In this document: piece by piece, positions 4,477 to 58,802 of the stretch
Numbering within the stretch: the stretch's first letter is position 1
How the letters are laid out: the number at the start of each line of letters is the position of its first letter
Source of the DNA: a bacterium
GTDB lineage: Bacteria > Patescibacteriota > Minisyncoccia > UBA6257 > GWB1-50-10
NCBI GenBank assembly: GCA_021815205.1
Contig: JAKAHD010000002.1
Coordinates: forward strand, 45,538-109,537
Direction: 5' to 3'
DNA: 64,000 nt
Notes under the pieces: generated by a model
Database searches by the model: none
What the model was told of the DNA's origin: nothing
What the model saw: only the letters and a program-made list of their open reading frames with translations
Made by a program: the position numbers and the translations under genes

Positions 4477-5235
4477 ATGAAGTACTTGCATCTTAGTGAG
4501 ACAGTGGTCGTAAAAAAGATTTCCGAGAAGGATAACATCGGAGTATTCCATATTGAAGGATTGTATACGGGATACGGCACGACCCTTGGGAACGCGCTTC
4601 GGAGAGTGCTCCTCTCTTCGCTTCCAGGAGCGGCGATTACCCAAATCAAGATACAAGGAGTGGATCACGAGTTTTCGACGCTTCCCGGCATGATGGAAGA
4701 TGTCGTCGAATATACGCTGAACCTGAAAAAGGTGAGATTTGTGTTTAACGCGGAAGAGCCGCAGACCCTTTCTTTAAAGGTAAAAGGGGAACGCGAAGTA
4801 ACGGCGGCCGATATTGAATCTTCCCCGTTCGTGCAGGTAATCAATAAAGATCTGCATCTTGCAACGCTCACGAAAAAGTCCGCCGAACTCAACATGGAAC
4901 TTACCGTCGAGAAAGGATTGGGGTACGTAGTCTCCGAGATGCATCGCGTGGAGCGTCTCTCTGTAGGAACGGTGGTCTTGGACGCAATCTTCTCTCCCGT
5001 CGTGCGCGTTGCGTTCAAGGTCGAGGACATGCGCGTGGGAGACAGGACCAACTTCAATCGTTTGGAGCTTGAGATAGAAACGGATGGCTCGATCAGCCCC
5101 TCCGAGGCGCTCCATAAAGCGGGGAAGATCATGAAAGATCATTTTGAGAAGATAGCGGAGATAGAAGTGACTCCGGCGGCGCTCGCCGAGGAAGCGGAAG
5201 AAGAGAAAGAAAAGAAAACAAAAAAGAAGAAATAA
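4477..5235 (+). CDS. rpoA: DNA-directed RNA polymerase alpha subunit, N-terminal domain only (no alpha-CTD)
   Basis: alpha-NTD motifs (GYGTTLGNALRRVLLSS.PGAAI); 252 aa ending in an EEAEEEKEKKTKKKK tail; no HhH alpha-CTD. Confidence 0.9.
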   Translation: MKYLHLSETVVVKKISEKDNIGVFHIEGLYTGYGTTLGNALRRVLLSSLPGAAITQIKIQGVDHEFSTLPGMMEDVVEYTLNLKKVRFVFNAEEPQTLSLKVKGEREVTAADIESSPFVQVINKDLHLATLTKKSAELNMELTVEKGLGYVVSEMHRVERLSVGTVVLDAIFSPVVRVAFKVEDMRVGDRTNFNRLELEIETDGSISPSEALHKAGKIMKDHFEKIAEIEVTPAALAEEAEEEKEKKTKKKK

Positions 5236-5240
5236 ATTTT

Positions 5241-5352
5241 GCTACGAAATACGAAGGTAGTACGAATATACGAAATTATAGCTTACGATTTATATCACAT
5301 AACTAACAAGGAACGCGGATTCGTATATTCGTACACAATTCGTAATTCGTAG
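5241..5352. repeat. TACGAA-type intergenic imperfect palindrome (T-element copy 2)
   Basis: gctacgaaatacgaagg..tacgaatatacgaa / attcgtatattcgta..aattcgtaattcgtag between rpoA stop and rplQ start. Confidence 0.8.
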
Positions 5353-5361
5353 AGAAATCCT

Positions 5362-6196: not shown

Positions 6197-6652
6197 ATGA
6201 CAACGACAACTCCAAAAACGAAAAAAACTTCGGCGGGAAATTCCGGAAAAGAGCGGTATCTCGAGGCGGTCGGAAGAAGAAAGACGGCGGTTGCGCGCGT
6301 CCGCCTTTTTACGGGGCGTCCAAAATCAAGCAAGGAACCAGAGATGATGGTGAATGGAAAGGGATTTACCGAATACTTCGGTCTCGTAAAACAGCAGGAG
6401 ATCGTACGCGCTCCGTTTCAGGCGCTCTCGCTTAAAGAGTACAACGCGACCGCGCTCGTGAAGGGCGGGGGCGTGCATGCGCAGGCGGAGGCGATCCGTC
6501 TCGGGCTCTCGAGGACGCTCGTCGCGATGAACCCCATCTGGCGCTCGAAATTGAAATCGCTCGGATTTTTGAAACGCGATCCCCGCAAAGTGGAACGCAA
6601 AAAGTACGGTCTGCGAAAAGCAAGAAGACCTCAGCAATGGCGTAAACGTTAA
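6197..6652 (+). CDS. rpsI: 30S ribosomal protein S9
   Basis: C-terminal GGG..AQA.A.RLG..RAL...KRDPR..ERKKYG..KARR..Q..KR. Confidence 0.95.
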   Translation: MTTTTPKTKKTSAGNSGKERYLEAVGRRKTAVARVRLFTGRPKSSKEPEMMVNGKGFTEYFGLVKQQEIVRAPFQALSLKEYNATALVKGGGVHAQAEAIRLGLSRTLVAMNPIWRSKLKSLGFLKRDPRKVERKKYGLRKARRPQQWRKR

Positions 6653-6716
6653 AAAAATCCCCTATCGGGGGATTTTTCTTTACGCCATTGCTGAGAGGAG
6701 GGGGTGATGGGGGAGG
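6634..6716 (+). repeat. 83-bp direct repeat copy 1 (rpsI 3' end + terminator + G-rich hairpin)
   Basis: caatggcgtaaacgttaaaaaaatcccctatcgggggatttttctttacgccattgctgagaggagggggtgatgggggaggg; identical again at 6795-6877. Confidence 0.85.
6652..6681 (+). terminator. rho-independent terminator of rpsI
   Basis: aaatcccc-tatc-ggggattt stem-loop then T-run; duplicated at ~6813-6842. Confidence 0.75.
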
Positions 6717-6794
6717 GCGGGAAATGAGCCCTCCCCCAAGCCGGAGCTCGCGAACCGAATGGTTCGCGGGAGTCCGCCAAAGGCGGACGACGCA

Positions 6795-6877
6795 ACAATG
6801 GCGTAAACGTTAAAAAAATCCCCTATCGGGGGATTTTTCTTTACGCCATTGCTGAGAGGAGGGGGTGATGGGGGAGG
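6795..6877 (+). repeat. 83-bp direct repeat copy 2 (includes second terminator copy)
   Basis: Perfect repeat of 6634-6716, 161 bp downstream. Confidence 0.85.
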
Positions 6878-6880
6878 GGC

Positions 6881-6972
6881 GGATCGCTGTATTGAAAAAG
6901 TGTGCGCTCCAAGACCGCCTGCCTGCGCAGGCAGGCGAGGCCGGTCTTACCCACTTTTTCAATACAGCGAAT
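6881..6972. repeat. ~90-nt near-perfect hairpin/palindrome at the convergent junction
   Basis: gctgtattgaaaaagtg...cactttttcaatacagc arms (17/17), aagaccg/cggtctt, central perfect palindrome cctgcctgcgcaggcagg. Confidence 0.7.
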
Positions 6973-10051: not shown

Positions 10052-10103
10052 CACTACCTCCTTTAATCTATACGGGCTGATAATAAGTATAGCATGAATA
10101 AAT

Positions 10104-10171
10104 CCCGTAAGAAGCTCACACGGGGTAGTAAACCCAGCGTTCGCCACGGGGATTTCTGCTTTTCACGGGAT
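10104..10171. repeat. MITE-like element X (terminal inverted repeats cccgtRagaagc / gcttYtcacggg)
   Basis: tcccgtaagaagctcacacggggtagtaaacccagcgttcgccacggggatttctgcttttcacggga; second copy at 47103-47229 carries a nested insertion. Confidence 0.7.
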
Positions 10172-15173: not shown

Positions 15174-15197
15174 GGTGCTATGCTATAGCATAGCACC
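15174..15197. repeat. perfect 24-bp palindrome ggtgctatgctatagcatagcacc (P family)
   Basis: Exact self-complementarity; one of 7 copies in the window. Confidence 0.9.
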
Positions 15198-15962: not shown

Positions 15963-15996
15963 CCATAGGTGCTATGACATGTCATAGCACCTATGG
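15963..15996. repeat. perfect 34-bp palindrome ccataggtgctatgacatgtcatagcacctatgg (P family)
   Basis: Exact self-complementarity, 15 nt after stop of 15307..15948. Confidence 0.9.
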
Positions 15997-16032
15997 TGCG
16001 TGCCATATGCGATATTGATCGGTGGAGCCCCA

Positions 16033-16262
16033 CGGCTTTACCCCCACACCATGGGCGTAAGCTCATGGTGTGAGGGTTTACAGCCGTGGCACCGCTCCAC
16101 ACGCTTCGTCGGGCGGAACCCTCCGAAGCGTATCCTCCTTCGCTCAAGCTACGGAGGATGCCCTCGTGCACCCCCGCATCTATGTATAGGTGTGGGGGTG
16201 CATCCCTGCATTTACGGGTGGGGCTTTCTCCGCTTCGCGGAGGAGGGTAGATTCAAGTATGA
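16033..16262. repeat. composite repeat C1 (contains Y-type cccccacac...gtgtggggg palindromes plus ~150-bp conserved core shared with 57375-57560)
   Basis: acggctttacccccacaccatggg...tttacagccgtggcaccgctccacacgcttcgtcgggcggaaccctccgaagcg shared with C2; second Y-like palindrome at ~16168-16203. Confidence 0.7.
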
Positions 16263-16297: not shown

Positions 16298-16720
16298 ATG
16301 AAAAAGAAGAAAATGCATATCTCGCTCATTTCGCATTACCCATCGCGTAAAGAATGGGAGAGCGCTTCGTGGGAGATAATTGTGCGATCTCCAGACATCC
16401 TTAACGCGCTGACTACTCCTCGCGAACGCCACGATTTAGTGATGCGCACCGCGGTAATAGAAAGAATTCATTCCGGGAAAAGCTATCGCGAGATTGGAAA
16501 AGAATTGTGGTGTTCTCCGCAGACCATAAGCAGCATCAAAAAGGCGCTTTATGAGAAAAAGTATCGAAGTTACCGAGAGCGGGGCAAAACAGAGCGGAAG
16601 AAAAGAGTGTATTCCTCGTTCTCCCGCAGAGCCGAACGAGAACCTAAGAAAAGAAAAGCGTACCGCGATTACGGTATGCCTCAATTATCGGGTATTTCAA
16701 GAAGACACCCGCTTAATTAA
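16298..16720 (+). CDS. TrpR-like (YerC/YecD family) HTH protein
   Basis: R..V...I..G.SYREIG......S..TISSIKKAL matches the YerC/YecD TrpR-like HTH pattern. Confidence 0.55.
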   Translation: MKKKKMHISLISHYPSRKEWESASWEIIVRSPDILNALTTPRERHDLVMRTAVIERIHSGKSYREIGKELWCSPQTISSIKKALYEKKYRSYRERGKTERKKRVYSSFSRRAEREPKKRKAYRDYGMPQLSGISRRHPLN

Positions 16721-16739
16721 GTACAGAAGGAAGAACAGG

Positions 16740-16767
16740 AGGGTGCTATGACATGTCATAGCACCCT
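16740..16767. repeat. perfect 28-bp palindrome agggtgctatgacatgtcatagcaccct (P family)
   Basis: Exact self-complementarity 20 nt after the stop of the TrpR-like gene. Confidence 0.9.
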
Positions 16768-16883
16768 CTATGCGTCAGAGGATGTATTTCGTTAGATTTT
16801 ACTGAGTCTCTTTCTGCTCCGAGTGCCGTATCGCTGTTTTTCGTTTTATTACCTTCTTCTCCGGGTTGTGGTATGGTTACCTT

Positions 16884-18053: not shown

Positions 18054-18147
18054 CCGCTGATTCACCCCCCACACCCATGCATGGGTGTGGGGGTGAAGCT
18101 GATTTTCGCCGATACATTATCCGCGGTCATCAGATCACAATCAGCGG
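18054..18147. repeat. MITE-like element Z with nested Y palindrome (18063-18095)
   Basis: ccgctgatt...[caccccccacacccatgcatgggtgtgggggtg]gaagctgattttcgccgata...aatcagcgg; Z copy without insert at 46987-47036. Confidence 0.65.
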
Positions 18148-21800: not shown

Positions 21801-23628
21801 AGACATACTGACCGACCGCGCCGTCGAAGAAGACCTCCTCGAAGTGCCGCTCACCGACAAGGTATTTAGGCGCTTTTCCTGGATCTCGGGGATCGTGATA
21901 TTTCTTGTGCTCGCACAGATCGTGAACGTGGGAGTATTCCAGCACGGGTTCTATGTGAAGCGCGCGATCGCGAATATGAGCGATATAAAAACGGAGGTTG
22001 CGCCGCGCGGAATTATCTATGATCGTTTCGGAAATCCGCTTATCAAAAACGATCCCGCATTCGATGCGTTTCTTGTTCCGAGCGAACTGCCGAAAGACGC
22101 CGATTCGAGGAGCGCCATTATTGCGAGAGTAAGTAAGCTGCTCGGCCTACAGGAGGCGGAGGTGCGGATGAAGATCGAGAAACGGGACTGGAGTTTGCGC
22201 TCGGACCTGCTCTTGAAACACGCCATTTCGCACGATGAGATCGTTGCGCTTTCTTCCGCAGCGCTCCAGGGGATTCAGATCACCCCCTCGTTTGAGCGAG
22301 TGCCCATTATACCCTTTACGTTCGCGCATCTTTTGGGATATACAGGACTCGTGAACGAGAGCGACCTAAGGGGAAATCAGAATCTCGCCATTGACGATCA
22401 AGTAGGAAGAGCCGGACTTGAGCGCGTGTACGACACCTACCTCCGCGGAGCGGATGGGAAAACCATGATCGTAACAAATGCGCGGGGCGAGCGGCAGAAC
22501 GAACGGGTGATTGCGCAGCCGACGATAGGCGATTCCCTCGCCACCTATATTGATAAGGATATGCAGCGTTATTTTTACGACGAGCTGCAGACTAAGATTC
22601 GCGCGCTCGGAAGAAACGTTGGGGTGGGAATCGCAATGAATCCCCAGAACGGAGAAGTGCTCGCACTCTTCAGCATTCCTTCATACGATTCAAATCACGT
22701 CGCGGCGTCCCTGAACGCGCCCTTTAATCCGATGTTTAACCGCGCGGTGAGCGGGCTCTACAGCCCGGGTTCGACCGTAAAGCCGCTTGTCGCGACTGGA
22801 GCTCTGGCGGAGGGGATACTGGACCCGAACCATGAGATCTACTCCCCGGGGTATCTCGATATCCCAAATCCGTACGACCCCTCGCATCCATCCCGATTTC
22901 TGGATTGGCAGCCTCAGGGATGGGTGAATCTCTTCTCCGCACTTGCGCGTTCGAGCGATGTCTACTTCTACGAAGTGGGCGGGGGATTTGGCGATCAGCG
23001 GGGCTTGGGCATTACGCGCCTTAGAAGCTGGTGGGAGAAGTTTGGATTGAACGTAACAACAGGGATTGATCTGCCGAACGAGAATGCGGGCTTTCTCCCC
23101 GACCCGCAATGGAAAGAGCGGGTGAAGGGTGAACCGTGGCGCCTCGGCGATACCTTCAATGTTTCGATCGGGCAGGGCGATCTCGTGATTACGCCGATCG
23201 AGCTTCTTAATTATGTGAACGCGATTGCGAATGGAGGGAAATTCGTTACGCCTCGTGTTATGAAAGATATAAAAGACGCGCAAGGGAACATCGTTCTTAA
23301 GAGCGCCCCCTCGGTGCGTGCTGACATAAGTTCCGAGATAGGAAAAGTTCTTCCTCTTGTGCGGCAAGGTATGCGCGACACGGTAATGAAACCCTACGGC
23401 ACCGCGTATCTTCTGCATGATCTTCCCATCGAGGTTGCGGCGAAGACCGGTTCCGCGCAAGTCGAAAATAACGCGAAGACGAACGCATTTTTCGTTGGGT
23501 ACGCGCCGTACCAAGATCCGCAGATTGCGATCGTGATCCTTGTCGAGAATGCGAGAGAAGGGAGCTTGAACGTAGTGCCGGTAGCGCGGGATTTCTTTCT
23601 GTGGTACTATAAGAACAGAATGAAATAG
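21739..23628 (+). CDS. mrdA: penicillin-binding protein 2 (class B PBP)
   Basis: SxxK (STVKP), SxN, KTG(S) motifs; N-terminal TM; start may be 21769 (MECMHG). Confidence 0.85.
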   Translation: MESYPGLWYGMECMHGDLNLEDILTDRAVEEDLLEVPLTDKVFRRFSWISGIVIFLVLAQIVNVGVFQHGFYVKRAIANMSDIKTEVAPRGIIYDRFGNPLIKNDPAFDAFLVPSELPKDADSRSAIIARVSKLLGLQEAEVRMKIEKRDWSLRSDLLLKHAISHDEIVALSSAALQGIQITPSFERVPIIPFTFAHLLGYTGLVNESDLRGNQNLAIDDQVGRAGLERVYDTYLRGADGKTMIVTNARGERQNERVIAQPTIGDSLATYIDKDMQRYFYDELQTKIRALGRNVGVGIAMNPQNGEVLALFSIPSYDSNHVAASLNAPFNPMFNRAVSGLYSPGSTVKPLVATGALAEGILDPNHEIYSPGYLDIPNPYDPSHPSRFLDWQPQGWVNLFSALARSSDVYFYEVGGGFGDQRGLGITRLRSWWEKFGLNVTTGIDLPNENAGFLPDPQWKERVKGEPWRLGDTFNVSIGQGDLVITPIELLNYVNAIANGGKFVTPRVMKDIKDAQGNIVLKSAPSVRADISSEIGKVLPLVRQGMRDTVMKPYGTAYLLHDLPIEVAAKTGSAQVENNAKTNAFFVGYAPYQDPQIAIVILVENAREGSLNVVPVARDFFLWYYKNRMK

Positions 23629-23632
23629 CGTA

Positions 23633-23745
23633 GCTACGAAATACGAATTTTCTACGAATATACGAATCTCCACGTCGTTCTGATTTACCTCCGGCGGAGA
23701 AGACCCTTCGTGTTCGTATATTCATAATCAATTCGTAATTCGTAG
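23633..23745. repeat. TACGAA-type intergenic imperfect palindrome (T-element copy 3)
   Basis: gctacgaaatacgaattttctacgaatatacgaa / ttcgtatattcataatcaattcgtaattcgtag between PBP2 and greA. Confidence 0.8.
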
Positions 23746-23753
23746 AGAATCAC

Positions 23754-24212
23754 ATGCAAAATTATTTAACAAAGGAACGACATGAGGAGCTTGTCGCGGA
23801 GTTAGATGATTTAAAGACGAAAGGGCGGCAGTCGGTTTCTGAGCGGCTGCGGCACGCGAAGGATCTGGGTGATCTCTCGGAGAACGCGGAGTATCAGGCG
23901 GCGCGCGAAGAGCAGTCGCTTTTGGAGCAGAAGATAGTCCAGCTCGAGTCGCTTTTGAAGTACTCGTCGATTATCGAGCACCAGCCGAAGGGAGGTACGG
24001 CGGTGCGGCTCGGATCGAAAGTGAAAGTGAAGAAGAATGGGTCGTCCGTCGAGTACACGCTCGTGGGCTCGAACGAGGCGGACCCCTTTCAGAATCTTAT
24101 CTCGAACGAGTCGCCCTTGGGGCGCGAGCTCCTTGGAAAGAATGTGGGGGATACGATACAGGTGCAGACGCCGAAAGGAACGGCAGAATATATAATCGAA
24201 GAAATTCACTGA
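23754..24212 (+). CDS. greA: transcription elongation factor GreA
   Basis: LT..G...L..EL..L....R..V...I..A...GDLSENAEY..A...Q. Confidence 0.9.
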   Translation: MQNYLTKERHEELVAELDDLKTKGRQSVSERLRHAKDLGDLSENAEYQAAREEQSLLEQKIVQLESLLKYSSIIEHQPKGGTAVRLGSKVKVKKNGSSVEYTLVGSNEADPFQNLISNESPLGRELLGKNVGDTIQVQTPKGTAEYIIEEIH

Positions 24213-24214
24213 GG

Positions 24215-24320
24215 GCTACGAAATACGAATTTTGTATGAATATACGAAAATACGAGATCCTTCACTTCGTTCAGGATGACGGCTGTATTCGTATATTCGT
24301 AAGTGATTCGTATTTCGTAG
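24215..24320. repeat. TACGAA-type intergenic imperfect palindrome (T-element copy 4; W-element fragment in centre)
   Basis: gctacgaaatacgaattttgtatgaatatacgaaaatacga...attcgtatattcgtaagtgattcgtatttcgtag; centre gatccttcacttcgttcaggatgac. Confidence 0.8.
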
Positions 24321-24340
24321 CATAATCTTAATAGAGTTCA

Positions 24341-25783
24341 ATGTTAGAGGACATCATGCAAGAACGGCGGGAAAAACTTTCCCGCTATACAAAAGAAGCG
24401 GATCCGTATCCGGCCCGCGTGAAGAGAACCGTAACGGCGCATGAGGCGCTTCTTCGGTTCGGCGCATTCCTAAAGGCAAACAAAACGATATGGCTTACGG
24501 GGAGAGTGATGAGTATGCGCGACCAGGGAGGGATCGTGTTTTTGCATATTGAGGATAAAAGCGGAACGATTCAAATCATCTTGAGAAAAGAAGAAACGAA
24601 AGGGTTCCGGGTGCTTCAGAAGACGCTCGACAAGGGCGACTTCCTTGAGGTTGCGGGGAAGGCGATGAAGACGAAGCGAGGGGAGAAGAGCGTGCTCGCA
24701 TCGCGGGCGCGGATTATCGCGAAGAGTCTCCGGCCCATTCCCGATTCGTGGTTCGGGCTCGAGGATGCGGAGACGCGCCTTCGGAAACGTTACCTCGATG
24801 CGATCGTGCACCCCGAAACCAGAGAACTCATGGAAAAGAAAGCGGTGTTTTGGGAGACCGTTCGGGAATTTCTGAAGCACGCATCGTTTCTGGAGGTCGA
24901 GACGCCCGTCCTGGAGCCGATTCCGGGAGGCGCCGAGGCGGAACCCTTCATCACGCACCATAACGCTTTGGACAGGAACTTCTATCTCCGCATCTCGCTT
25001 GAACTCTCATTGAAAAAGATGCTTGTCGCCGGACTTGAGCGGGTATTTGAGATTGGAAGGATTTTTAGGAACGAGGGGATCGATCGCGAGCATCTACAGG
25101 ACTACACGCAGATGGAGTGCTACATGGCGTATGCGGACTATCACGACATGATGCGGCTTACCGAAAAAATGTTCAAAGCAATCGTGAAACGAACCTGCGG
25201 GACATTCACCACCTCTCAAGGAGGAAAGAAGGTAAACTGGGGAACAAAATGGAAGAGCGTTGACTATTATGCGGCGTTCAAAAGATATAACGGCATCGAT
25301 TTGAAATCCGCGCCGGTCGAATCTCTGCGCGCTCGCGCGCGCGAGCTCGGCATCCCGCTCGATGCGTCCGTCGGGAAGGGAAAACTTATCGATCTTATAT
25401 ACAAAAAAACGGTGCGCCCGAAACTCGTGAATCCTTGTTTTCTCGTGAATCCTCCGGTTGCGATCGAGCCGCTCGCAAAACGCGTGCCGGAAGACCGGGA
25501 TCGCGTGGAGCGATTCCAGATTGTCGCCCTCGGTACGGAGCTCGGAAAAGGATTCTCGGAGTTGAACGATCCGATCGATCAGCGGGCGCGATTCGAGGAG
25601 CAAATGGCGCTTCGAGACGCGGGCGACAAGGAAGCGCAGATGCTCGACGAAGATTTTATAGAAGCATTGGAATACGGCATGCCTCCCGCCGCCGGGTTTG
25701 GCATGTCGGAGCGCTTTTTTGCGGTTTTGATGGACAAGCCCGTACGGGAGACGGTATTTTTTCCTTTGATGAGAGAACGGTGA
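24341..25783 (+). CDS. lysS: lysyl-tRNA synthetase (class II)
   Basis: OB anticodon-binding domain then class II core (FLEVETP, RISLEL..K, FEIGRIFRNEG, ELG.GFSE). Confidence 0.9.
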   Translation: MLEDIMQERREKLSRYTKEADPYPARVKRTVTAHEALLRFGAFLKANKTIWLTGRVMSMRDQGGIVFLHIEDKSGTIQIILRKEETKGFRVLQKTLDKGDFLEVAGKAMKTKRGEKSVLASRARIIAKSLRPIPDSWFGLEDAETRLRKRYLDAIVHPETRELMEKKAVFWETVREFLKHASFLEVETPVLEPIPGGAEAEPFITHHNALDRNFYLRISLELSLKKMLVAGLERVFEIGRIFRNEGIDREHLQDYTQMECYMAYADYHDMMRLTEKMFKAIVKRTCGTFTTSQGGKKVNWGTKWKSVDYYAAFKRYNGIDLKSAPVESLRARARELGIPLDASVGKGKLIDLIYKKTVRPKLVNPCFLVNPPVAIEPLAKRVPEDRDRVERFQIVALGTELGKGFSELNDPIDQRARFEEQMALRDAGDKEAQMLDEDFIEALEYGMPPAAGFGMSERFFAVLMDKPVRETVFFPLMRER

Positions 25784-25786
25784 TAT

Positions 25787-25901
25787 GCTACGCAATACGA
25801 ATTTTGTAGGAATATACGAAAACGAAGAATATGCAAGCAGCGTGTTACTGAGCGGTATGTGTTGTACATTCGTATATTCGTAATTAATTCGTATTTCGTA
25901 G
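25787..25901. repeat. TACGAA-type intergenic imperfect palindrome (T-element copy 5)
   Basis: gctacgcaatacgaattttgtaggaatatacgaaaacgaa ... attcgtatattcgtaattaattcgtatttcgtag between lysS and serS. Confidence 0.8.
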
Positions 25902-25920
25902 CGAATTTTTATAGAAAATT

Positions 25921-27174
25921 ATGCTTAATGTGAATCTTATACGGGAAAATCCCGAAGCGGTGAAACAGGGGATTATGAAGAAAAATGTCGACGGGAAGCT
26001 TGTCGACAAGTTTTTGAAGCTCGATGAAACGTGGCGCGCAAAAACGAAAGCCCTGGATGAACTGAAGGCGGAACAGAATGCCGTGACAAAGGAGCTTTCA
26101 CACGGCCCGAAAGAGGACTTGATCAGCAAAGCGCAACTCTTAAAGCAGCGTATCGCGGACATAGAGGCAGAGTGCGATGCCGCGGGAGCGAAACGAAAGG
26201 AACTCTTGGGCCGGATCCCGAACGTGCCATTCGAGGATGTGCCGGTTGGGAAAGACGAAACCGAGAATAAGGTGGTCCGCGAAGTCGGAAAGAAACCGAA
26301 GTTTGATTTCGAACCGAAAGAATATCTTCCGCTTGCCGAAAAGCTTGGTATCGTGAATCTCAAAAAGGCATCAGAGGTTTCGGGAAGCCGATTCGGATAT
26401 CTTGTAGGGGACGCGGCGCTCCTCGAGTTTGCGCTCGTACAGCTCGCATTCGATACGGCGCGCGAAGAGGGATTTGTTCCCGTCGTACCGCCCGTGATGA
26501 TCAAGCCCGATGTGTATGCCGGCATGGGGCGTCTTGCCGCCGACCAGAAGGAGGAGCGCTACTATCTGCCGAAGGATGAGCTGTATCTCGTAGGAAGCGC
26601 CGAACACACGGTAGGGCCGCTTCATATGCATGAAGTGTTTGAAGCGGAAGATCTGCCCCGCCGTTATATCGCGTTTTCAACGTGTTTCAGAAGGGAAGCG
26701 GGATCATATGGAAAAGACACGAAGGGGATTTTGAGGGTGCATCAATTCGACAAGGTGGAGTTATTCTCCTTCTCGCACCCAGAAAAATCGGAAGAGGAGC
26801 ATCGGTTCCTCCTTTCGCTCCAGGAGCGATTATTTCAGAAACTTGAGATTCCCTATCGCGTGGTCGCGATCTGTACGGGTGACATGGGATGGACGGATGC
26901 GCGGCAATTCGATATTGAAGCGTGGCTTCCCGGAGAAAAGGCGTATCGCGAGATCACCTCGTGTTCCAACACCACTGACTTCCAGGCGCGCGGCATCAAC
27001 GCGAAATACAAAACGAAGGACGGGAAAAAGGAATTCGTCCATATGCTGAACGCGACTGGGTTCGCGATCGGAAGAACTTTGATCGCGATCATCGAAAACA
27101 ACCAGACGAAAGAAGGGACGATCCGTGTCCCGAAGGCGCTCCAAAGATACCTCGGGAAGGAAGAGATACAGTAA
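25921..27174 (+). CDS. serS: seryl-tRNA synthetase
   Basis: N-terminal coiled coil, class II core (FRREAGS.GKDT.G..R.HQF.KVE). Confidence 0.9.
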   Translation: MLNVNLIRENPEAVKQGIMKKNVDGKLVDKFLKLDETWRAKTKALDELKAEQNAVTKELSHGPKEDLISKAQLLKQRIADIEAECDAAGAKRKELLGRIPNVPFEDVPVGKDETENKVVREVGKKPKFDFEPKEYLPLAEKLGIVNLKKASEVSGSRFGYLVGDAALLEFALVQLAFDTAREEGFVPVVPPVMIKPDVYAGMGRLAADQKEERYYLPKDELYLVGSAEHTVGPLHMHEVFEAEDLPRRYIAFSTCFRREAGSYGKDTKGILRVHQFDKVELFSFSHPEKSEEEHRFLLSLQERLFQKLEIPYRVVAICTGDMGWTDARQFDIEAWLPGEKAYREITSCSNTTDFQARGINAKYKTKDGKKEFVHMLNATGFAIGRTLIAIIENNQTKEGTIRVPKALQRYLGKEEIQ

Positions 27175-27244
27175 ATGAGGCAGTAGGTAGCAGAATTTTA
27201 AAACCCTGTATACCATAGTGAGATAGTAATAAAATAGAACCCAC

Positions 27245-27278
27245 ACCAAGTTATTTCGCCATGGCGAAATAACTTGGT
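27245..27278. promoter_or_regulatory. perfect 34-bp palindrome accaagttatttcgccatggcgaaataacttggt (operator-like) at start of PaaX-like gene
   Basis: Exact self-complementarity; 42-bp version at 28042-28083. Confidence 0.7.
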
Positions 27279-27900
27279 AGAAAATGGAACGCGCGCCAAA
27301 ATAAGGCACATGACTCAAGGACAGAAAAGAAAAATGCAATTACGGCGCGGATCCCGTGCGCATCATATTATGAAATGTGTTGCATTGGGAGGCGGTGTGC
27401 TGGTTCTATCGCTTGTTGCTCCTATGGGCGGCGCACTCCTTGTGCGAAATTTGATCCGCGTGTATTTCAGGAGGAGATCTTTTGAGAAAAAACGGTTCCT
27501 GAACGACCTCAAGAGTCTTCGGGAACGCAGTTTGGTGGAGTATCATGAGTCACGGGACGGAACGGTGAGGATTACGTTCACAAAAGCGGGAAAAGAAAAG
27601 ATGCTTGAATATCGGGTGGACGAGATGAAGCTTAAAAGGCCAGAAAAGTGGGATAAAAAATGGCGTCTCGTAATGTTTGATATTCCAAGCGATCACAAAG
27701 AAGCGAGAGATGCATTAAGAAGAAAGTTGAAGAGATTGGAATTTTATCCTATGCAGAAAAGCGTGTATCTTACCCCGTATCCATGCGAAGATGAAATAGA
27801 ATTTTTAGCCGCGCTCTTTGATGTGAGGCGATATATACTCGTGCTTTACGCAAGCGGTTTTGAGAGCGAGGAGAAATTAAAACGGCATTTTGATTTGTGA
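27274..27900 (+). CDS. PaaX-like regulator: N-terminal hydrophobic segment, wHTH, Cas2/VapD-like domain (start uncertain, possibly 27310 or 27370)
   Basis: SLVEYHESRDGTVRITFTKAGKEKM (winged helix) then WRLVMFDIPSDHKEARDALRRKLKRLEFYPMQKSVYL (Cas2-like strand-helix-strand as in PaaX central domain). Confidence 0.5.
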   Translation: MVENGTRAKIRHMTQGQKRKMQLRRGSRAHHIMKCVALGGGVLVLSLVAPMGGALLVRNLIRVYFRRRSFEKKRFLNDLKSLRERSLVEYHESRDGTVRITFTKAGKEKMLEYRVDEMKLKRPEKWDKKWRLVMFDIPSDHKEARDALRRKLKRLEFYPMQKSVYLTPYPCEDEIEFLAALFDVRRYILVLYASGFESEEKLKRHFDL

Positions 27901-28041
27901 AGTTTTTGTAGCGCTCTATGACCCTCGTAGTCGCGTGATTGTTATGGCGGAGTAGGCCGAATGCGGCACTCACCTCACACACTTTGTCGAGTGGAGTTTC
28001 TTGAGGCGCGTCGCCGTAGCGGCCCGCCCTAAAGGTTTTGC

Positions 28042-28083
28042 GCCACACCAAGTTATTTCGCCATGGCGAAATAACTTGGTGTG
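28042..28083. promoter_or_regulatory. perfect 42-bp palindrome ccacaccaagttatttcgccatggcgaaataacttggtgtgg (second operator-like copy)
   Basis: Exact self-complementarity; ~40 nt upstream of PKD-domain gene. Confidence 0.7.
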
Positions 28084-28121
28084 GGCATGGAGGTAGTACA
28101 AATGTGTATAATAAAAGAGTA

Positions 28122-28769
28122 ATGAGAATTTTTAGGAAGGCATTGCTTTGGATTATCGTGCTCGTAGCCGTGGGATACGGCGCATGGTATGCCTACTCCA
28201 AGTGGTGGGGGATTGATAATGCGAAACGGGTGGGGGGCTTTATGGATACTACGGCGAAAAATATCGGCAATGCCGCCGTCACGAAGGCGGGTGAAATAGG
28301 GACCGAGGTGGCATCGAATACGGTGAAAAGCGCACGCTCCTTCGTAGGGAGCACGATCGGCAACCTGCTCTCGGGGCTCGGAAGCTCGATTGAGAATGCG
28401 GGGATAGGTCTCGGAGGAACTCCTTCGTCTCCGGCGGGATCAACTACGAACGGAAATCAAACCTACGCACAGCCGGCTCTTCCAAGCGGTTCCGCGCCCG
28501 CGCCGACCTCGAGCGCGTTCTCTGTGCCGCCGCCTCCCGCGACGGTTATGACGAAAGTGGGCGTGCCATTGAGTTTCTCGATCAACAGCGGAACAACATA
28601 CCGCGTTGAATGGGGAGATGGAAAAGTCGCCGAAGGGACGACTGCGGCGCACGAAGTTACGGTCATCAGCCATATGTGGAGTGCACAAGGCGACTATACG
28701 GTGCATATGACGATCGGAGACAACGGGTCAAAAACCATTTCGTCGTTTCCGGTACGAGCGTACCAATAG
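28122..28769 (+). CDS. membrane-anchored protein with C-terminal PKD/Ig-like domain (hypothetical)
   Basis: Start at MRIFRKALLWIIVLVAVGYGAW; Gly/Ser-rich linker; YRVEWGDG...H.V...W...GDYTVHMTIGDNG resembles PKD. Confidence 0.5.
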   Translation: MRIFRKALLWIIVLVAVGYGAWYAYSKWWGIDNAKRVGGFMDTTAKNIGNAAVTKAGEIGTEVASNTVKSARSFVGSTIGNLLSGLGSSIENAGIGLGGTPSSPAGSTTNGNQTYAQPALPSGSAPAPTSSAFSVPPPPATVMTKVGVPLSFSINSGTTYRVEWGDGKVAEGTTAAHEVTVISHMWSAQGDYTVHMTIGDNGSKTISSFPVRAYQ

Positions 28770-28772
28770 AAG

Positions 28773-29588
28773 ATGTTCCGGTATAAGAAGAAAAAATTCA
28801 ATCCCGAACTCTATCCCTCTCATCACAAAAAGAAACGGAACGCAATCTGGTTCTGGATAGCGAGCGGAGCGATCATCATTCTCCTTCTCACGGGTGCGGG
28901 ATATGCGGCGCTGAACCTTGTCTGGCTCCGCGTAGCCGATTTTAAAGTGGAGGGAAACGTACAGGTGCCGCCCGACGCGATTATTTCCGAGACGGCGAAG
29001 GAGATGCTTACGAACACATGGCGGGGATGGATAGGTCCCGGAAATATCCTGTTCTGGGTGTTCGGAAAAACCCCGGAGCGCCTCGACCGCTTTCCCGAGG
29101 TGAAGGAAGTGCGCGTCACCTCGAATCTTTTTACGCGCAGCGTGAATATCACGGCGGAGGAACGAACGCCATTCGCGATTCTATGCGAGGCGTCTTCAAC
29201 GAGGTGTTTCGTTATGGATCACGAAGGGATTCTTTTCGCCTCGGCGCCCCAGACGGAGGGGACGCTCATTCTGAAGATTCAGGATGCCACAAATCGGACC
29301 CTGCTCCTCGGAATGCCGTTTCTTCCGGATGCTTTGTGGATACATCACGTCTTTTCGGTGCTCGAGGCATTGAAGCGGAACGATTTTGTGCCGCGTGCGA
29401 CCTCAATTGAAAGTCTTTCGCTCCGCACGTGGTCCGTGAAGGTGACCCAGGGACCAACATTCGTCTTCAGCTTGAACTTCGTGCCAGACAATCTCGACTC
29501 CATCTTGAGCAACCTCTCCGGAAAGTTGGATTTTTCGAGCGTCTCGACGGTGAACTTTGAAGTGCCGAACAGGATATACTACCAATAA
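28773..29588 (+). CDS. ftsQ: cell division protein FtsQ/DivIB
   Basis: Short cytoplasmic tail, one TM, POTRA-like FKVEGNVQVPPDAI, FtsQ-type beta domain. Confidence 0.7.
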   Translation: MFRYKKKKFNPELYPSHHKKKRNAIWFWIASGAIIILLLTGAGYAALNLVWLRVADFKVEGNVQVPPDAIISETAKEMLTNTWRGWIGPGNILFWVFGKTPERLDRFPEVKEVRVTSNLFTRSVNITAEERTPFAILCEASSTRCFVMDHEGILFASAPQTEGTLILKIQDATNRTLLLGMPFLPDALWIHHVFSVLEALKRNDFVPRATSIESLSLRTWSVKVTQGPTFVFSLNFVPDNLDSILSNLSGKLDFSSVSTVNFEVPNRIYYQ

Positions 29589-47036: not shown

Positions 47037-47102
47037 TTCACCCCGTTAGAAGTTGCGCAGAAATAATGATGCGTCTTCTTCTATGATGCGATTATCATAA
47101 AT

Positions 47103-47229
47103 CCCGTGAGAAGCTCACATGGGGTAGTAAACCCCGCGTTCGCCACGGGACGAGGCATTCACCCCCACACTAAATGAGTGTGGGGGTTCATCCCTGTGGC
47201 ACGCCCGGGGTTTTCTGCTTCTCACGGGA
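47103..47229. repeat. MITE-like element X with nested Y palindrome (47161-47187)
   Basis: tcccgtgagaagctcacatggggtagtaaaccccgcgttcgccacggg[acgaggcattcacccccacactaaatgagtgtgggggttcatccctgtggcacgcccgg]ggttttctgcttctcacggga vs uninterrupted copy at 10104-10171. Confidence 0.75.
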
Positions 47230-55765: not shown

Positions 55766-55881
55766 TTCATCAGGATCCATCTCAAAAGTACTCAGAATTA
55801 TGCTCTGGGACTCCTCGAATGCGCCAAGGAAGTTCAACTTCTTTAGAGAGTCGAACTTCGAAGACACTCCGCGTTGAAACA

Positions 55882-55915
55882 CCGAGGGTGCTATGACATG
55901 TCATAGCACCCTCGG
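55882..55915. repeat. perfect 34-bp palindrome ccgagggtgctatgacatgtcatagcaccctcgg (P family)
   Basis: Exact self-complementarity. Confidence 0.9.
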
Positions 55916-55955
55916 TGCGGTGGAAAAAAGGGGATGATTGTGTAATAATAAAGGC

Positions 55956-57018: not shown

Positions 57019-57365
57019 TCAGATGCTCAAGGCGATCTGAATTAATCCCTTCGACACCTTTTTTCGGTCTTCCGGGCCAAGTGACTCTCCCGTGGGAATC
57101 ACATCGCTCACCATAAGGATGGTAAGAGCTCGTATTCCATACAGTGCCGCGCGGGTGTAGAGCTCTGCGCTTTCCATTTCAACAGCAAGGACCCCGTATT
57201 TCGTCCAAAGCTTCCACTCGTCCGGATATTCATCGTCGTAGAAGAAATCCGTTGCGAGGATGTTGCCGACTCGGATGGGAATAGTACCCCTTTCTCTGTA
57301 TCCGAGGGAAGAGGAAGAAGGGAGATAATATCGGAAATGGGAGACGTCGAAAAACTTACGGAGCT
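57019..57365 (-). pseudogene. deoD: truncated purine nucleoside phosphorylase DeoD-type (C-terminal ~110 aa only), disrupted by repeat C2
   Basis: RVGNILATDFFYDDEYPDEWKLWTKYGVLAVEMESAELYTRAALYGIRALTILMVSDV matches DeoD/PNP-UDP C-terminus; N-terminal ~130 aa replaced by repeat-derived sequence. Confidence 0.6.
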
Positions 57366-57374
57366 TGTGGAGCC

Positions 57375-57560
57375 CTACGGCTTTACCCCCACACCATGGG
57401 CTCATGATGTGGGGGGTTTACACCCGTGGCACCGCTCCACACGCTTCGTCAGGCGAAACCCTCCGAAGCGATCCTTCTTCGCCAAAGGCTACGAAGGATA
57501 CCCTCCTTTGCATTCATCCATGGGCTTACACCCGTGGTTTTCTGCGAAGGAGGGTAAAAA
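57375..57560. repeat. composite repeat C2 (Y palindrome 57385-57417 plus conserved core shared with C1)
   Basis: acggctttacccccacaccatggg...tttacacccgtggcaccgctccacacgcttcgtcaggcgaaaccctccgaagcg aligns with 16033-16130. Confidence 0.7.
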
Positions 57561-57635: not shown

Positions 57636-57661
57636 AGGTGCTATGCTATAGCATAGCACCT
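57636..57661. repeat. perfect 26-bp palindrome aggtgctatgctatagcatagcacct (P family)
   Basis: Exact self-complementarity. Confidence 0.9.
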
Positions 57662-58245: not shown

Positions 58246-58271
58246 GGGTGTTATGACGCGTCATAACACCC
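58246..58271. repeat. perfect 26-bp palindrome gggtgttatgacgcgtcataacaccc (P family variant)
   Basis: Exact self-complementarity. Confidence 0.85.
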
Positions 58272-58490: not shown

Positions 58491-58580
58491 GGAGGGGTCG
58501 CATAGCGGTCTAGTGCGCAGTCCTGGAAAGACTGTATACCCGAAAGGGTATCGAGGGTTCAAATCCCTCCCCCTCCGCCA
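58491..58580 (+). tRNA. tRNA-Ser (anticodon GGA), CCA encoded
   Basis: Acceptor ggagggg/cccctcc, anticodon stem cagtc/gactg loop cuGGAaa, long variable arm tataccc-gaaa-gggtat, T-arm gaggg-ttcaaat-ccctc, discriminator G. Confidence 0.85.
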
Positions 58581-58619
58581 ATACACAAACAGGATATCTT
58601 TATGGTATCCTGTTTGTGT
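58581..58619 (+). terminator. hairpin terminator after tRNA-Ser
   Basis: atacacaaacaggatatc-ttta-tggtatcctgtttgtgtat perfect 17-bp stem. Confidence 0.6.
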
Positions 58620-58741
58620 ATCTTGACGTGCGGATTTGAACGGAACTTTCGCGCCTGCAGGGCAGGATTCAGCGAAAGTCCGTGGCTTCGGAGGAGCAAT
58701 TTCATTTGAGCGAAGCGAATATGTAAATTGCGGAGGAGAAG

Positions 58742-58802
58742 AAATCCCTCCCCCTCCGCCAATACACAAACAGGATATCTTTATGGTATCCTGTTTGTGT
58801 AT
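58742..58802 (+). repeat. 61-bp exact direct repeat of tRNA-Ser 3' end + terminator (copy 1 at 58561-58621); att-site-like
   Basis: aaatccctccccctccgccaatacacaaacaggatatctttatggtatcctgtttgtgtat occurs twice 181 bp apart. Confidence 0.85.

Follow-up and report, generated by a model that had tools for sequence, protein, structure and literature searches.

On a 64,000-bp stretch of a contig of the Patescibacteriota (JAKAHD010000002.1, positions 45,538 to 109,537; assembly GCA_021815205.1), hereafter called the window, a gene for a small PaaX-like protein, here termed mini-PaaX, is enclosed by two copies of a long perfect palindrome. As judged by comparison of many homologous loci, the palindromes are very probably the binding sites of this protein. 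We consider it rather likely that mini-PaaX is an autoregulated repressor of the PaaX type, devoid of an effector domain, with two cognate operators. The analysis established the domain architecture of the protein, the uniqueness of the site, the two-site layout, the conserved positions within the site and the location of the upstream copy close to a promoter. What is new here is the two-site layout, which by comparison is conserved across the family; the type of protein itself is related to the known PaaX. To our knowledge, gene regulation in the Patescibacteria (candidate phyla radiation, CPR) is scarcely known, and we know of no transcription factor of theirs with a defined operator. In this case a cognate site of approximately 34 to 50 bp could be assigned to a very large uncharacterised family by comparative evidence alone, and its half-site consensus, its spacing and its promoter position are each a testable prediction.

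Palindromes on both sides of the gene

The upstream palindrome, composed of the arms ACCAAGTTATTTCGCCA and TGGCGAAATAACTTGGT (full sequence ACCAAGTTATTTCGCCATGGCGAAATAACTTGGT), comprises 34 bp (27245-27278) and is perfect. The same sequence was found again at 28047-28080, where the symmetry is widened to 42 bp (28043-28084; CCACACC...GGTGTGG). The copies have 38 nt in common when read as direct repeats (27241-27278 = 28043-28080) and 39 nt when read as inverted repeats. Thus, both palindromes reported in the initial annotation of the window are real and perfect, only the coordinates given there for the second one (28042-28083) were off by one. When up to three mismatches were allowed, exactly two matches to the palindrome were obtained in the window versus none expected (100 shuffles), and the half-site pair AGTTAT-N8-22-ATAACT occurred at these two places only. 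A search of the window with the outer 10-mer disclosed no additional site. Downstream of the gene, the palindrome is located 143 nt past the stop codon and 22 nt ahead of a TATAAT (28107-28112), which is followed by PKD/FtsQ-like genes (ATG 28122). As a hairpin of single-stranded DNA the upstream copy yielded -15.6 kcal/mol (z = -7.7) and the downstream copy -23.6 kcal/mol (z = -9.5).

Further copies were sought with a 22-nt core of the site in one genome per species (185,579 species). Besides the two copies in 64 kb, only one other locus was identified (L001, on a Paceibacterota metagenome-assembled genome, MAG), and it adjoins a mini-PaaX homologue. There, an identical 36-bp palindrome lies 51 nt past the stop codon of the homologue, whose protein is 54% identical to that of the window, and a degenerate copy is present at its 5' end. 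The L001 genome has a different base composition, and the neighbouring genes (transketolase) are unrelated to those of the window. In the loci L023 and L026 the sites have clearly diverged despite 78% protein identity.

The comparison was extended to a set of 85 homologous loci. Close homologues possess long perfect palindromes (28-64 bp) on both sides, which are alike within a locus and unlike between loci; where only one side carried a palindrome, the other side mostly disclosed a degenerate copy, half a copy or the end of the contig. Of the 53 flanks of close homologues, 35 contained a perfect palindrome with a stem of at least 12 bp, versus 10 of 132 other regions outside of open reading frames (ORFs) in the same loci, and the palindrome density was 1.39 per kb near the gene versus 0.073 per kb elsewhere. 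A further test did not assume palindromy and also took in distant relatives with sites that are not palindromic at the centre. An exact match of at least 12 nt common to the 200-nt upstream and downstream flanks existed in 44 of 74 loci, but in only one of 108 controls. This result and the single other occurrence of the core, next to a homologue, favour the autoregulated repressor with two operators that had been proposed initially, with binding as a prediction.

The two copies enclose the gene at a distance of about 620-800 bp. They are arranged as direct repeats in 20 loci, as inverted repeats in 12, and are fully palindromic in another 12, a mixture that is expected if a symmetric dimer reads the sites. 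The downstream copy resides 3-143 nt past the stop codon and shows no constant arrangement with respect to the next promoter. Close relatives retain synteny, and the divergence rate of the protein is similar to that of the products of neighbouring genes; in distant genomes the neighbouring genes differ.

Sister copies of the same locus differed at 11 arm positions, and all 11 differences were matched by the complementary base on the other arm (L004, L011, L019, L024, L025, L030 and L071). Compensated arm changes were also observed between the orthologous sites of L031 and L071. In three loci (L014, L023 and L054) asymmetric centres are flipped between the copies, and in many family members (L054, L061, L063 and L064) the centre is non-palindromic and the outer inverted half-sites are conserved. 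Mismatches of imperfect copies did not reveal an excess of G-U pairs on the sense strand (four sense, three antisense, nine other). In view of this compensatory upkeep one may ask by what means palindromes of such length are held perfect in these small genomes.

An alignment of the sites of 35 loci, anchored at the centre, showed conserved nucleotides at the positions -4 (G, 31/35), -3 (C, 32/35) and -1 (A, 26/35). The centre has the structure GC-N4-GC and is accompanied by a TAT block (-10 to -8), the motif YCCA (-16 to -13) and T-rich outer ends. Outer half-sites of the type TATC(C/A)(A/C) are N24-N28 apart. The PaaX repressor of E. coli, whose binding sequence is TGATTC-N27-GAATCA, keeps its own promoter repressed through steric hindrance (PMC9493321). 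This published operator has a geometry that the mini-PaaX sites resemble, which also speaks for operators, as does the position of the upstream copy at a -10-like hexamer. Of 18 loci, 10 had such a hexamer (at least 5/6 of TATAAT) no more than 18 nt past the upstream copy (background 10%, p = 2e-6), and only one of the 18 had it on the opposite side of the same palindromes. Since the start codon often follows just 6-11 nt past the hexamer, the upstream copy should lie over the -35/spacer region. In the window, the candidate -10 motif TAGAAAAT is similar to the motifs TAGAGAAT and TATAGAAAAT just upstream of greA, lysS and serS.

Two side observations concern the sites. In 7 of 27 loci (e.g., L009, L011, L019 and L071) a -10-like hexamer is located just inside the downstream copy and faces the gene (background approximately 10%); it is possibly an antisense promoter mirroring the sense one, a weak signal which AT-rich 3' regions may inflate. 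Furthermore, a perfect 42-bp palindrome (CACTTGGCGGTTTAACCGCCATGGCGGTTAAACCGCCAAGTG) whose centre GCCATGGC is that of the mini-PaaX sites was noticed in locus L085 (1335-1376), inside the frame of an alanyl-tRNA synthetase and about 1.1 kb upstream of a mini-PaaX homologue at which no flanking palindromes were detected.

Domains of the mini-PaaX protein

According to the initial annotation, the protein consists of an N-terminal hydrophobic segment, a winged-helix segment and a Cas2-like C-terminal domain as in the centre of PaaX. Profile searches and structure prediction, both recommended there, supported this reading of the domains. The C-terminal domain matched the Pfam family PF20803 PaaX_M ("PaaX central Cas2-like domain") with an E value of 5.9e-22 and 78 bits (cut-off 24), and the same family was recognized in all 33 aligned relatives. 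The match to the Pfam family CRISPR_Cas2 was partial (26.2 bits versus 23.8; positions 2-36 of 74 of the profile only), and other Pfam domains were not found in the protein. It scored 21.5 bits with the PaaX equivalog TIGR02277 (cut-off 264.55) and 21.7 bits with the Cas2 model TIGR01573, which is below the cut-off of 24.5. Mini-PaaX is not a member of the PaaX equivalog and probably lies outside Cas2 proper. No match was obtained to the N-terminal PaaX family PF07848 at E <= 1 or to the PaaX_C effector domain; the protein stops right past the Cas2-like domain (196 aa versus about 305 aa), and neither the N-terminal nor the C-terminal PaaX family of Pfam was recognized in any of the 33 relatives.

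An AlphaFold2 (AF2) model was built from the alignment of these relatives (pLDDT 88.8, pTM 0.72). It consists of a winged helix, a linker helix and a beta-alpha-beta-beta-alpha-beta domain. The winged helix is canonical (helix 16-26, strand 30-34, helix 43-52, recognition helix 60-72, wing 76-90) and superposes on PaaX 8a39, with the PF07848 match missing; the recognition helix has the sequence KKRFLNDLKSLRE. In a Foldseek search of the PDB, E. coli PaaX (8a39) was the top match, with 199 columns across both domains, followed by matches to single domains, namely proteins with a winged helix-turn-helix (wHTH; F93, MarR-type) and Cas2 chains. Profile matches to TubR and MarR were weak.

Throughout the family W114, D115, R119, D124 (of the motif FDIP), Q149 and S151 are invariant, and a PYPC motif is conserved. 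D124 is aligned with the Asp of the YD(I/V) motif of Cas2. The hydrophobic N-terminal segment is a family trait as well: out of 236 relatives, 173 exceeded a hydropathy of 1.6 and 103 a value of 2.0 (19-residue Kyte-Doolittle window), with the peak at the same position in all of these. Some relatives (P0076, P0080, P0086, P0088 and P0089) lack the hydrophobicity. In the AF2 model the segment is packed, at lower confidence, into the winged helix, of which it forms helix 1 and strand 1. The family comprises 1,323 clusters (50% identity) at E <= 1e-30 and 3,875 clusters at E <= 1e-10, and all named members originate from MAGs of Patescibacteria. Homologues were not found in the phage and plasmid collections IMG/VR, INPHARED and PLSDB. 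PADLOC gave partial Cas2 matches only and PHROGs no match. In the literature, we found no paper on the family and none tying PaaX-like or Cas2-like proteins of CPR bacteria to palindromes.

Like PaaX of E. coli W (8a39) and Jannaschia (3l09), mini-PaaX has a Cas2-like PaaX_M domain, preceded in the model by an N-terminal winged helix. The widely spaced inverted repeats at the PaaX promoter have a counterpart in the mini-PaaX half-sites and in the upstream site abutting the -10 region, to which binding is predicted. Unlike PaaX, mini-PaaX is devoid of the C-terminal effector (phenylacetyl-CoA) domain, of a PF07848 match and of adjacent paa genes; it exhibits a hydrophobic N-terminus, a palindromic spacer and a second site just 3' of the gene. 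With Cas2 and VapD it has the ferredoxin-like fold in common. Its (V/M)FDI sequence in beta1 is aligned with YD(I/V) of Cas2, and Q-x-S-V-(F/Y) with the beta2 motif of Cas2. In contrast to Cas2, only the first half of the profile is matched, a wHTH is fused to the domain, cas1 and a CRISPR array are lacking, and in place of an array there are two repeats enclosing the gene. Most likely, mini-PaaX works like the DNA-binding core of PaaX. A family made up of this core (wHTH and Cas2-like domain) without the effector domain also bears on the use of the Cas2 fold outside of CRISPR.

Proposed autoregulation and alternative readings

If mini-PaaX is a repressor, the winged helix would recognize the DNA, and the Cas2-like domain would serve as dimerization module as in PaaX. 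A two-fold symmetric dimer may bind the long palindrome through the outer half-sites, some 24-28 bp apart, with additional contacts to the TAT block and the GC-N4-GC centre. As the upstream site would be placed directly against, or just downstream of, the -10 element of the gene, the bound dimer is predicted to switch off the transcription of its own gene by occlusion or as a roadblock. The downstream copy would be a second operator. How it acts is the weakest link of the proposal: it may support a repression loop around the gene, or a roadblock that insulates the gene from neighbouring transcription or couples it to this transcription. We infer binding, dimer stoichiometry, repression and the loop or roadblock.

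Repressors enclosed by operators and acting by looping are well known from the lambda cI gene between OL and OR, from gal (OE/OI) and from lac (O1/O2). Their loops, hundreds of bp up to about 2 kb in size, are compatible with cooperative binding. Here as there, operators are located on both sides of, or within, the controlled unit. However, each mini-PaaX operator is one long perfect palindrome, the second site is found a few to about 140 nt past the stop codon, the regulator gene being monocistronic, and looping is a conjecture in our case.

Several points weigh against this reading. The symmetry of the sites exceeds the need of a dimer, and one protein reading both sites does not account for the compensated changes of the arms. 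These changes would require either DNA that folds on itself (cruciform or hairpin) or an arm-to-arm correction in these genomes. Within the 64 kb searched the only sites flank the gene itself, and there is no obvious other target. The invariance of D124, Q149 and S151 together with the PYPC motif suggests that the C-terminal domain does more than dimerize. An N-terminal segment resembling a transmembrane helix is an uncommon feature in a plain repressor. In the loci L002 and L004 the downstream copy lies between convergent genes, and therefore it cannot generally be the operator of a neighbour's promoter. Moreover, the -10 region of the window is weak, TAGAAA(AT) agreeing at 4/6 positions only, and a sigma-70 scan of the window called no promoter.

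Some of these points lead to a first alternative, to which we assign a small though appreciable chance. The palindromes may act as structures, i.e. as hairpins or cruciforms whose symmetry is actively maintained and which the Cas2-derived domain, by means of its retained metal-site residues, recognizes and perhaps cuts or nicks; hairpins and gene might even form a selfish unit. It would resemble repetitive extragenic palindromic (REP) elements with their RAYT proteins or the ends of the insertion sequences IS200/IS605, but with a Cas2-derived enzyme. Such a role is consistent with a symmetry running through the centre and restored in all compensated arms, with the flipped asymmetric centres, the strong hairpins, the invariant Cas2 signature residues, the exchange of neighbours between distant genomes and the GC content of the gene (0.45 versus 0.50-0.55 around it). 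On the other hand, many members have non-palindromic centres and retain the outer half-sites, and the pattern of conserved positions is typical of contacts between protein and duplex DNA. The unrelated operators of a TrpR-like regulator in the window (see below) are equally perfect, so that perfection may belong to the genomes. Further points against this alternative are a single-copy gene, a site that is not dispersed, the mixed orientation of the copies, the synteny and neighbour-like divergence of close relatives, and the absence of homologues from the phage and plasmid collections. Should the palindromes nevertheless function as hairpins, they would define a large CPR-specific "hairpin-gene-hairpin" family, representing a new selfish or structure-dependent element or a membrane-tethered DNA anchor, and would be an instance, outside of CRISPR, of a Cas2 fold paired with a sequence-specific repeat of its own.

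REP/RAYT systems (REPtrons) and IS200/IS605 also have one gene between two hairpin palindromes, and in them, too, the palindrome sequence and the gene vary together from genome to genome. Unlike those, mini-PaaX lacks a HUH/Y1 domain, its palindromes are neither dispersed nor fixed in orientation, and its hairpins are perfect and without conserved heads of the GTAG type. We rejected a REPtron, as Pfam revealed PaaX_M and Cas2 and no HUH-Y1 domain, and as the site was present in two copies in 64 kb and at one other locus in 185,579 genomes. A transposon or an insertion sequence bounded by terminal inverted repeats was dismissed because of the orientations (20/12/12) and the lack of a transposase and of phage or plasmid homologues. 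An integron attC site was also rejected, as it does not fit perfect palindromes without extrahelical bases, the lack of an integrase and a promoter inside the unit. The initial annotation had named a cassette bounded by repeats as the other option; as a mobile unit this cassette is not supported in view of the mixed orientation, the missing recombinase, a divergence rate like that of the neighbours and the absence of homologues on phages and plasmids.

It is unlikely that the palindromes act at the RNA level. In this reading they would be transcribed, and the hairpins formed at both the 5' and the 3' terminus of the mRNA (or at the 3' terminus of the transcript arriving from upstream) would stabilize the RNA or terminate transcription with the aid of a factor; the Cas2-like protein might bind them. 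Members of the Cas2 and VapD families have been reported to be RNases, which would suit such a role. The downstream copy follows the stop codon at just 3-70 nt in most loci, the window RNA folds strongly, and transcription could begin at the left edge of the upstream palindrome if TAAAAT (27230-27235) served as the -10 sequence. In most loci, though, a -10-like hexamer lies past the upstream copy, with the start codon 6-11 nt further on, which makes this copy promoter DNA, and in L004 it is situated between divergent genes. The loop sequences are themselves palindromic, the sense strand shows no G-U excess, and there is no Rfam match: at gathering thresholds only two tRNAs were detected in the whole window, and at permissive thresholds the region 27100-28200 gave nothing but two chance matches of the microRNA type on the hairpin. 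Intrinsic terminators, with a GC-rich stem, a loop of 3-8 nt and a 3' U-tract, were rejected: the terminator scan called neither palindrome, a T run past the stem is absent, and the outer arms are T-rich at 5' and A-rich at 3', the reverse of terminator geometry.

Still more doubtful is a membrane-anchored DNA tether, in which the N-terminal segment would sit in the membrane and the palindromes beside the gene would act like centromeres in the organization or segregation of the chromosome. The hydropathy of the segment at a constant position in most relatives is in line with this idea, and so are the two detectable sites, which both flank the gene, and the large family seemingly confined to CPR bacteria. 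The partition protein TubR was the second-best sequence match in the PDB, which is weak evidence. Against a tether, the AF2 model packs the segment into the winged helix, both of its sides are strongly basic and do not fit a simple single span, and the relatives named above lack the hydrophobicity. A partner NTPase was not found nearby, and the neighbours vary. There is no switch of the GC skew at the locus, for which reason a replication origin or terminus was also rejected.

Generic intergenic palindromes of the terminator or REP type, located at the gene by chance and unlinked to the protein, are effectively excluded: it is true that the window contains 19 perfect palindromes (stem of at least 10 bp), all of them intergenic, and that another family of six copies brackets three other genes, but the mini-PaaX palindrome occurs at the two flanks only, its sole other occurrence in the reference genomes adjoins a homologue, the flank pairs are far more frequent than in the controls, and the other family is cognate to a regulator gene of its own.

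The locus and other repeats of the window

Table 1. Positions of the mini-PaaX gene, its domains and sites, and of the second palindrome family in the window
Feature	Position	Strand	Remarks
Upstream copy of the putative cognate site	27241..27278	.	repeat start 27241 (direct) or 27240 (inverted)
Downstream copy of the putative cognate site	28043..28084	.	perfect 42-bp palindrome
mini-PaaX coding sequence (wHTH and Cas2-like domain), 196 aa	27310..27900	+	alternative starts TTG 27274, ATG 27334, ATG 27370
Winged helix-turn-helix	27355..27579	+	residues ~16-90; AF2 model, Foldseek matches
Cas2-like ferredoxin-fold domain (PaaX_M, residues 112-193)	27643..27888	+	Pfam, AF2, Foldseek
Candidate -10 region TAGAAAAT	27278..27285	+	abuts palindrome; read from sequence, by analogy with homologous loci
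Second candidate -10 region, TAAAAT	27230-27235		9 nt ahead of palindrome
Second palindrome family, six copies	15174-15197, 15963-15996, 16739-16768, 55880-55917, 57636-57661, 58246-58271

The ORF 27274-27900 opens with a TTG, which is probably not the real start. Because the homologues start with M..(K/R)LRR(N/G)S, a motif that points to ATG 27310 (AAGG at 27303-27306) or ATG 27334, we prefer one of these codons. The NCBI annotation (GCA_027423515.1) begins at ATG 27370 (P0001, 176 aa), whereby the conserved N-terminal motif is lost. With ATG 27310 as start, the upstream palindrome ends about 32 nt before the coding region. The overlap of palindrome and gene start described in the initial annotation would thus not exist.

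The gene is preceded by serS and followed by genes for a PKD-domain protein (28122-28769) and an FtsQ-like POTRA protein (28773-29588); Pfam and gene calls agreed with the earlier assignment of these two as PKD protein and ftsQ. Within approximately 5 kb lie lysS, serS, the genes of the PKD and FtsQ-like proteins and that of a PMT-type glycosyltransferase. No paa catabolic genes are among the neighbours, and in the homologous loci the neighbours were varied and unrelated. That cas1 and a CRISPR array are missing nearby, as stated before, was confirmed by a direct-repeat survey of the window, which detected no CRISPR-like array, and by the housekeeping nature of the neighbouring genes. A transposase or recombinase was not found at the locus, nor did tblastn reveal a mini-PaaX paralogue in the window. 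The stretch from the stop codon to the downstream palindrome (27901-28042, 143 nt) is longer and richer in GC than in the homologous loci (3-70 nt). As RNA it adopts a stable fold (z = -4.8 including the hairpin), and it contains neither an Rfam match nor a convincing ORF.

The second palindrome family (GGTGYTATGAC[A/G]YGTCATARCACC and GGTGCTATGCTATAGCATAGCACC) brackets three small genes of the window. One of them encodes a TrpR/YerC-like helix-turn-helix regulator (16298-16720) and is flanked by palindromes of the form GGTGYTATGAC..GTCATARCACC. At the TrpR/YerC-like homologues of L088, L089 and L090 and at a paralogue on the same contig, a palindrome of the family was located upstream and another 8-45 nt past the stop codon. 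In L089 and L090 the family lies next to a gene resembling DUF4147/MOFRL glycerate kinases. These palindromes are probably the operators of the TrpR/YerC-like regulator, which would control a small regulon. A binding of mini-PaaX to them was rejected, since they do not fit its position-weight pattern and belong to the TrpR-like regulator. Both systems have a perfect palindrome upstream and another soon past the stop codon. They differ in that the DNA-binding folds are unrelated and that the TrpR-linked palindromes also occur at other genes, while the mini-PaaX site is confined to its own gene. A regulator gene inside its own perfect palindromes is therefore a recurring design in these genomes.

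An element of approximately 140 nt is present twice (16022-16165 and 57367-57505; 83-97% identity) and adjoins TrpR-linked palindromes in both cases. Its second copy covers the end of a truncated PNP_UDP_1 ORF (57019-57405, minus strand), and no Rfam match to the element was found. Hairpins based on CCCCCACAC(C)...GTGTGGGGG were seen in intergenic regions at 18066-18093, 47161-47187 and 16040-16077. The motif CCACACC/GGTGTGG, which they contain, also makes up the outer ends by which the downstream mini-PaaX palindrome is extended, and a 53-nt repeat (10098-10150 and 47097-47149, 94% identity) lies beside two of them.

Further repeats were noticed in the window. Five intergenic regions (163-301, 5222-5356, 23614-23749, 24196-24324 and 25768-25905) harbour a long imperfect inverted repeat in which CTACGAAATACGAAT..TACGAATATACGAA is followed, after about 30-40 nt, by TTCGTATATTCGTA..ATTCGTAATTCGTAG. 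It ends 5-25 nt before the start codons of greA, lysS, serS and two other genes, with motifs like TAGAGAAT and TAGAAAAT behind it, and may represent a promoter or regulatory module common to these genes, or else a structured leader. A tandem-like duplication of 91 nt (6632-6722 and 6793-6883, 97% identity) contains the terminator-like hairpin AAAAATCCCCTATCGGGGGATTTTT in each copy. Finally, the 3' end of a tRNA-Ser gene (58491-58580) together with a hairpin of 16-22 bp (ATACACAAACAGGATA..TATCCTGTTTGTGTAT; 58561-58621) is exactly duplicated 181 bp downstream (58742-58802), which resembles a duplication of the attachment-site type or what an integration has left behind.

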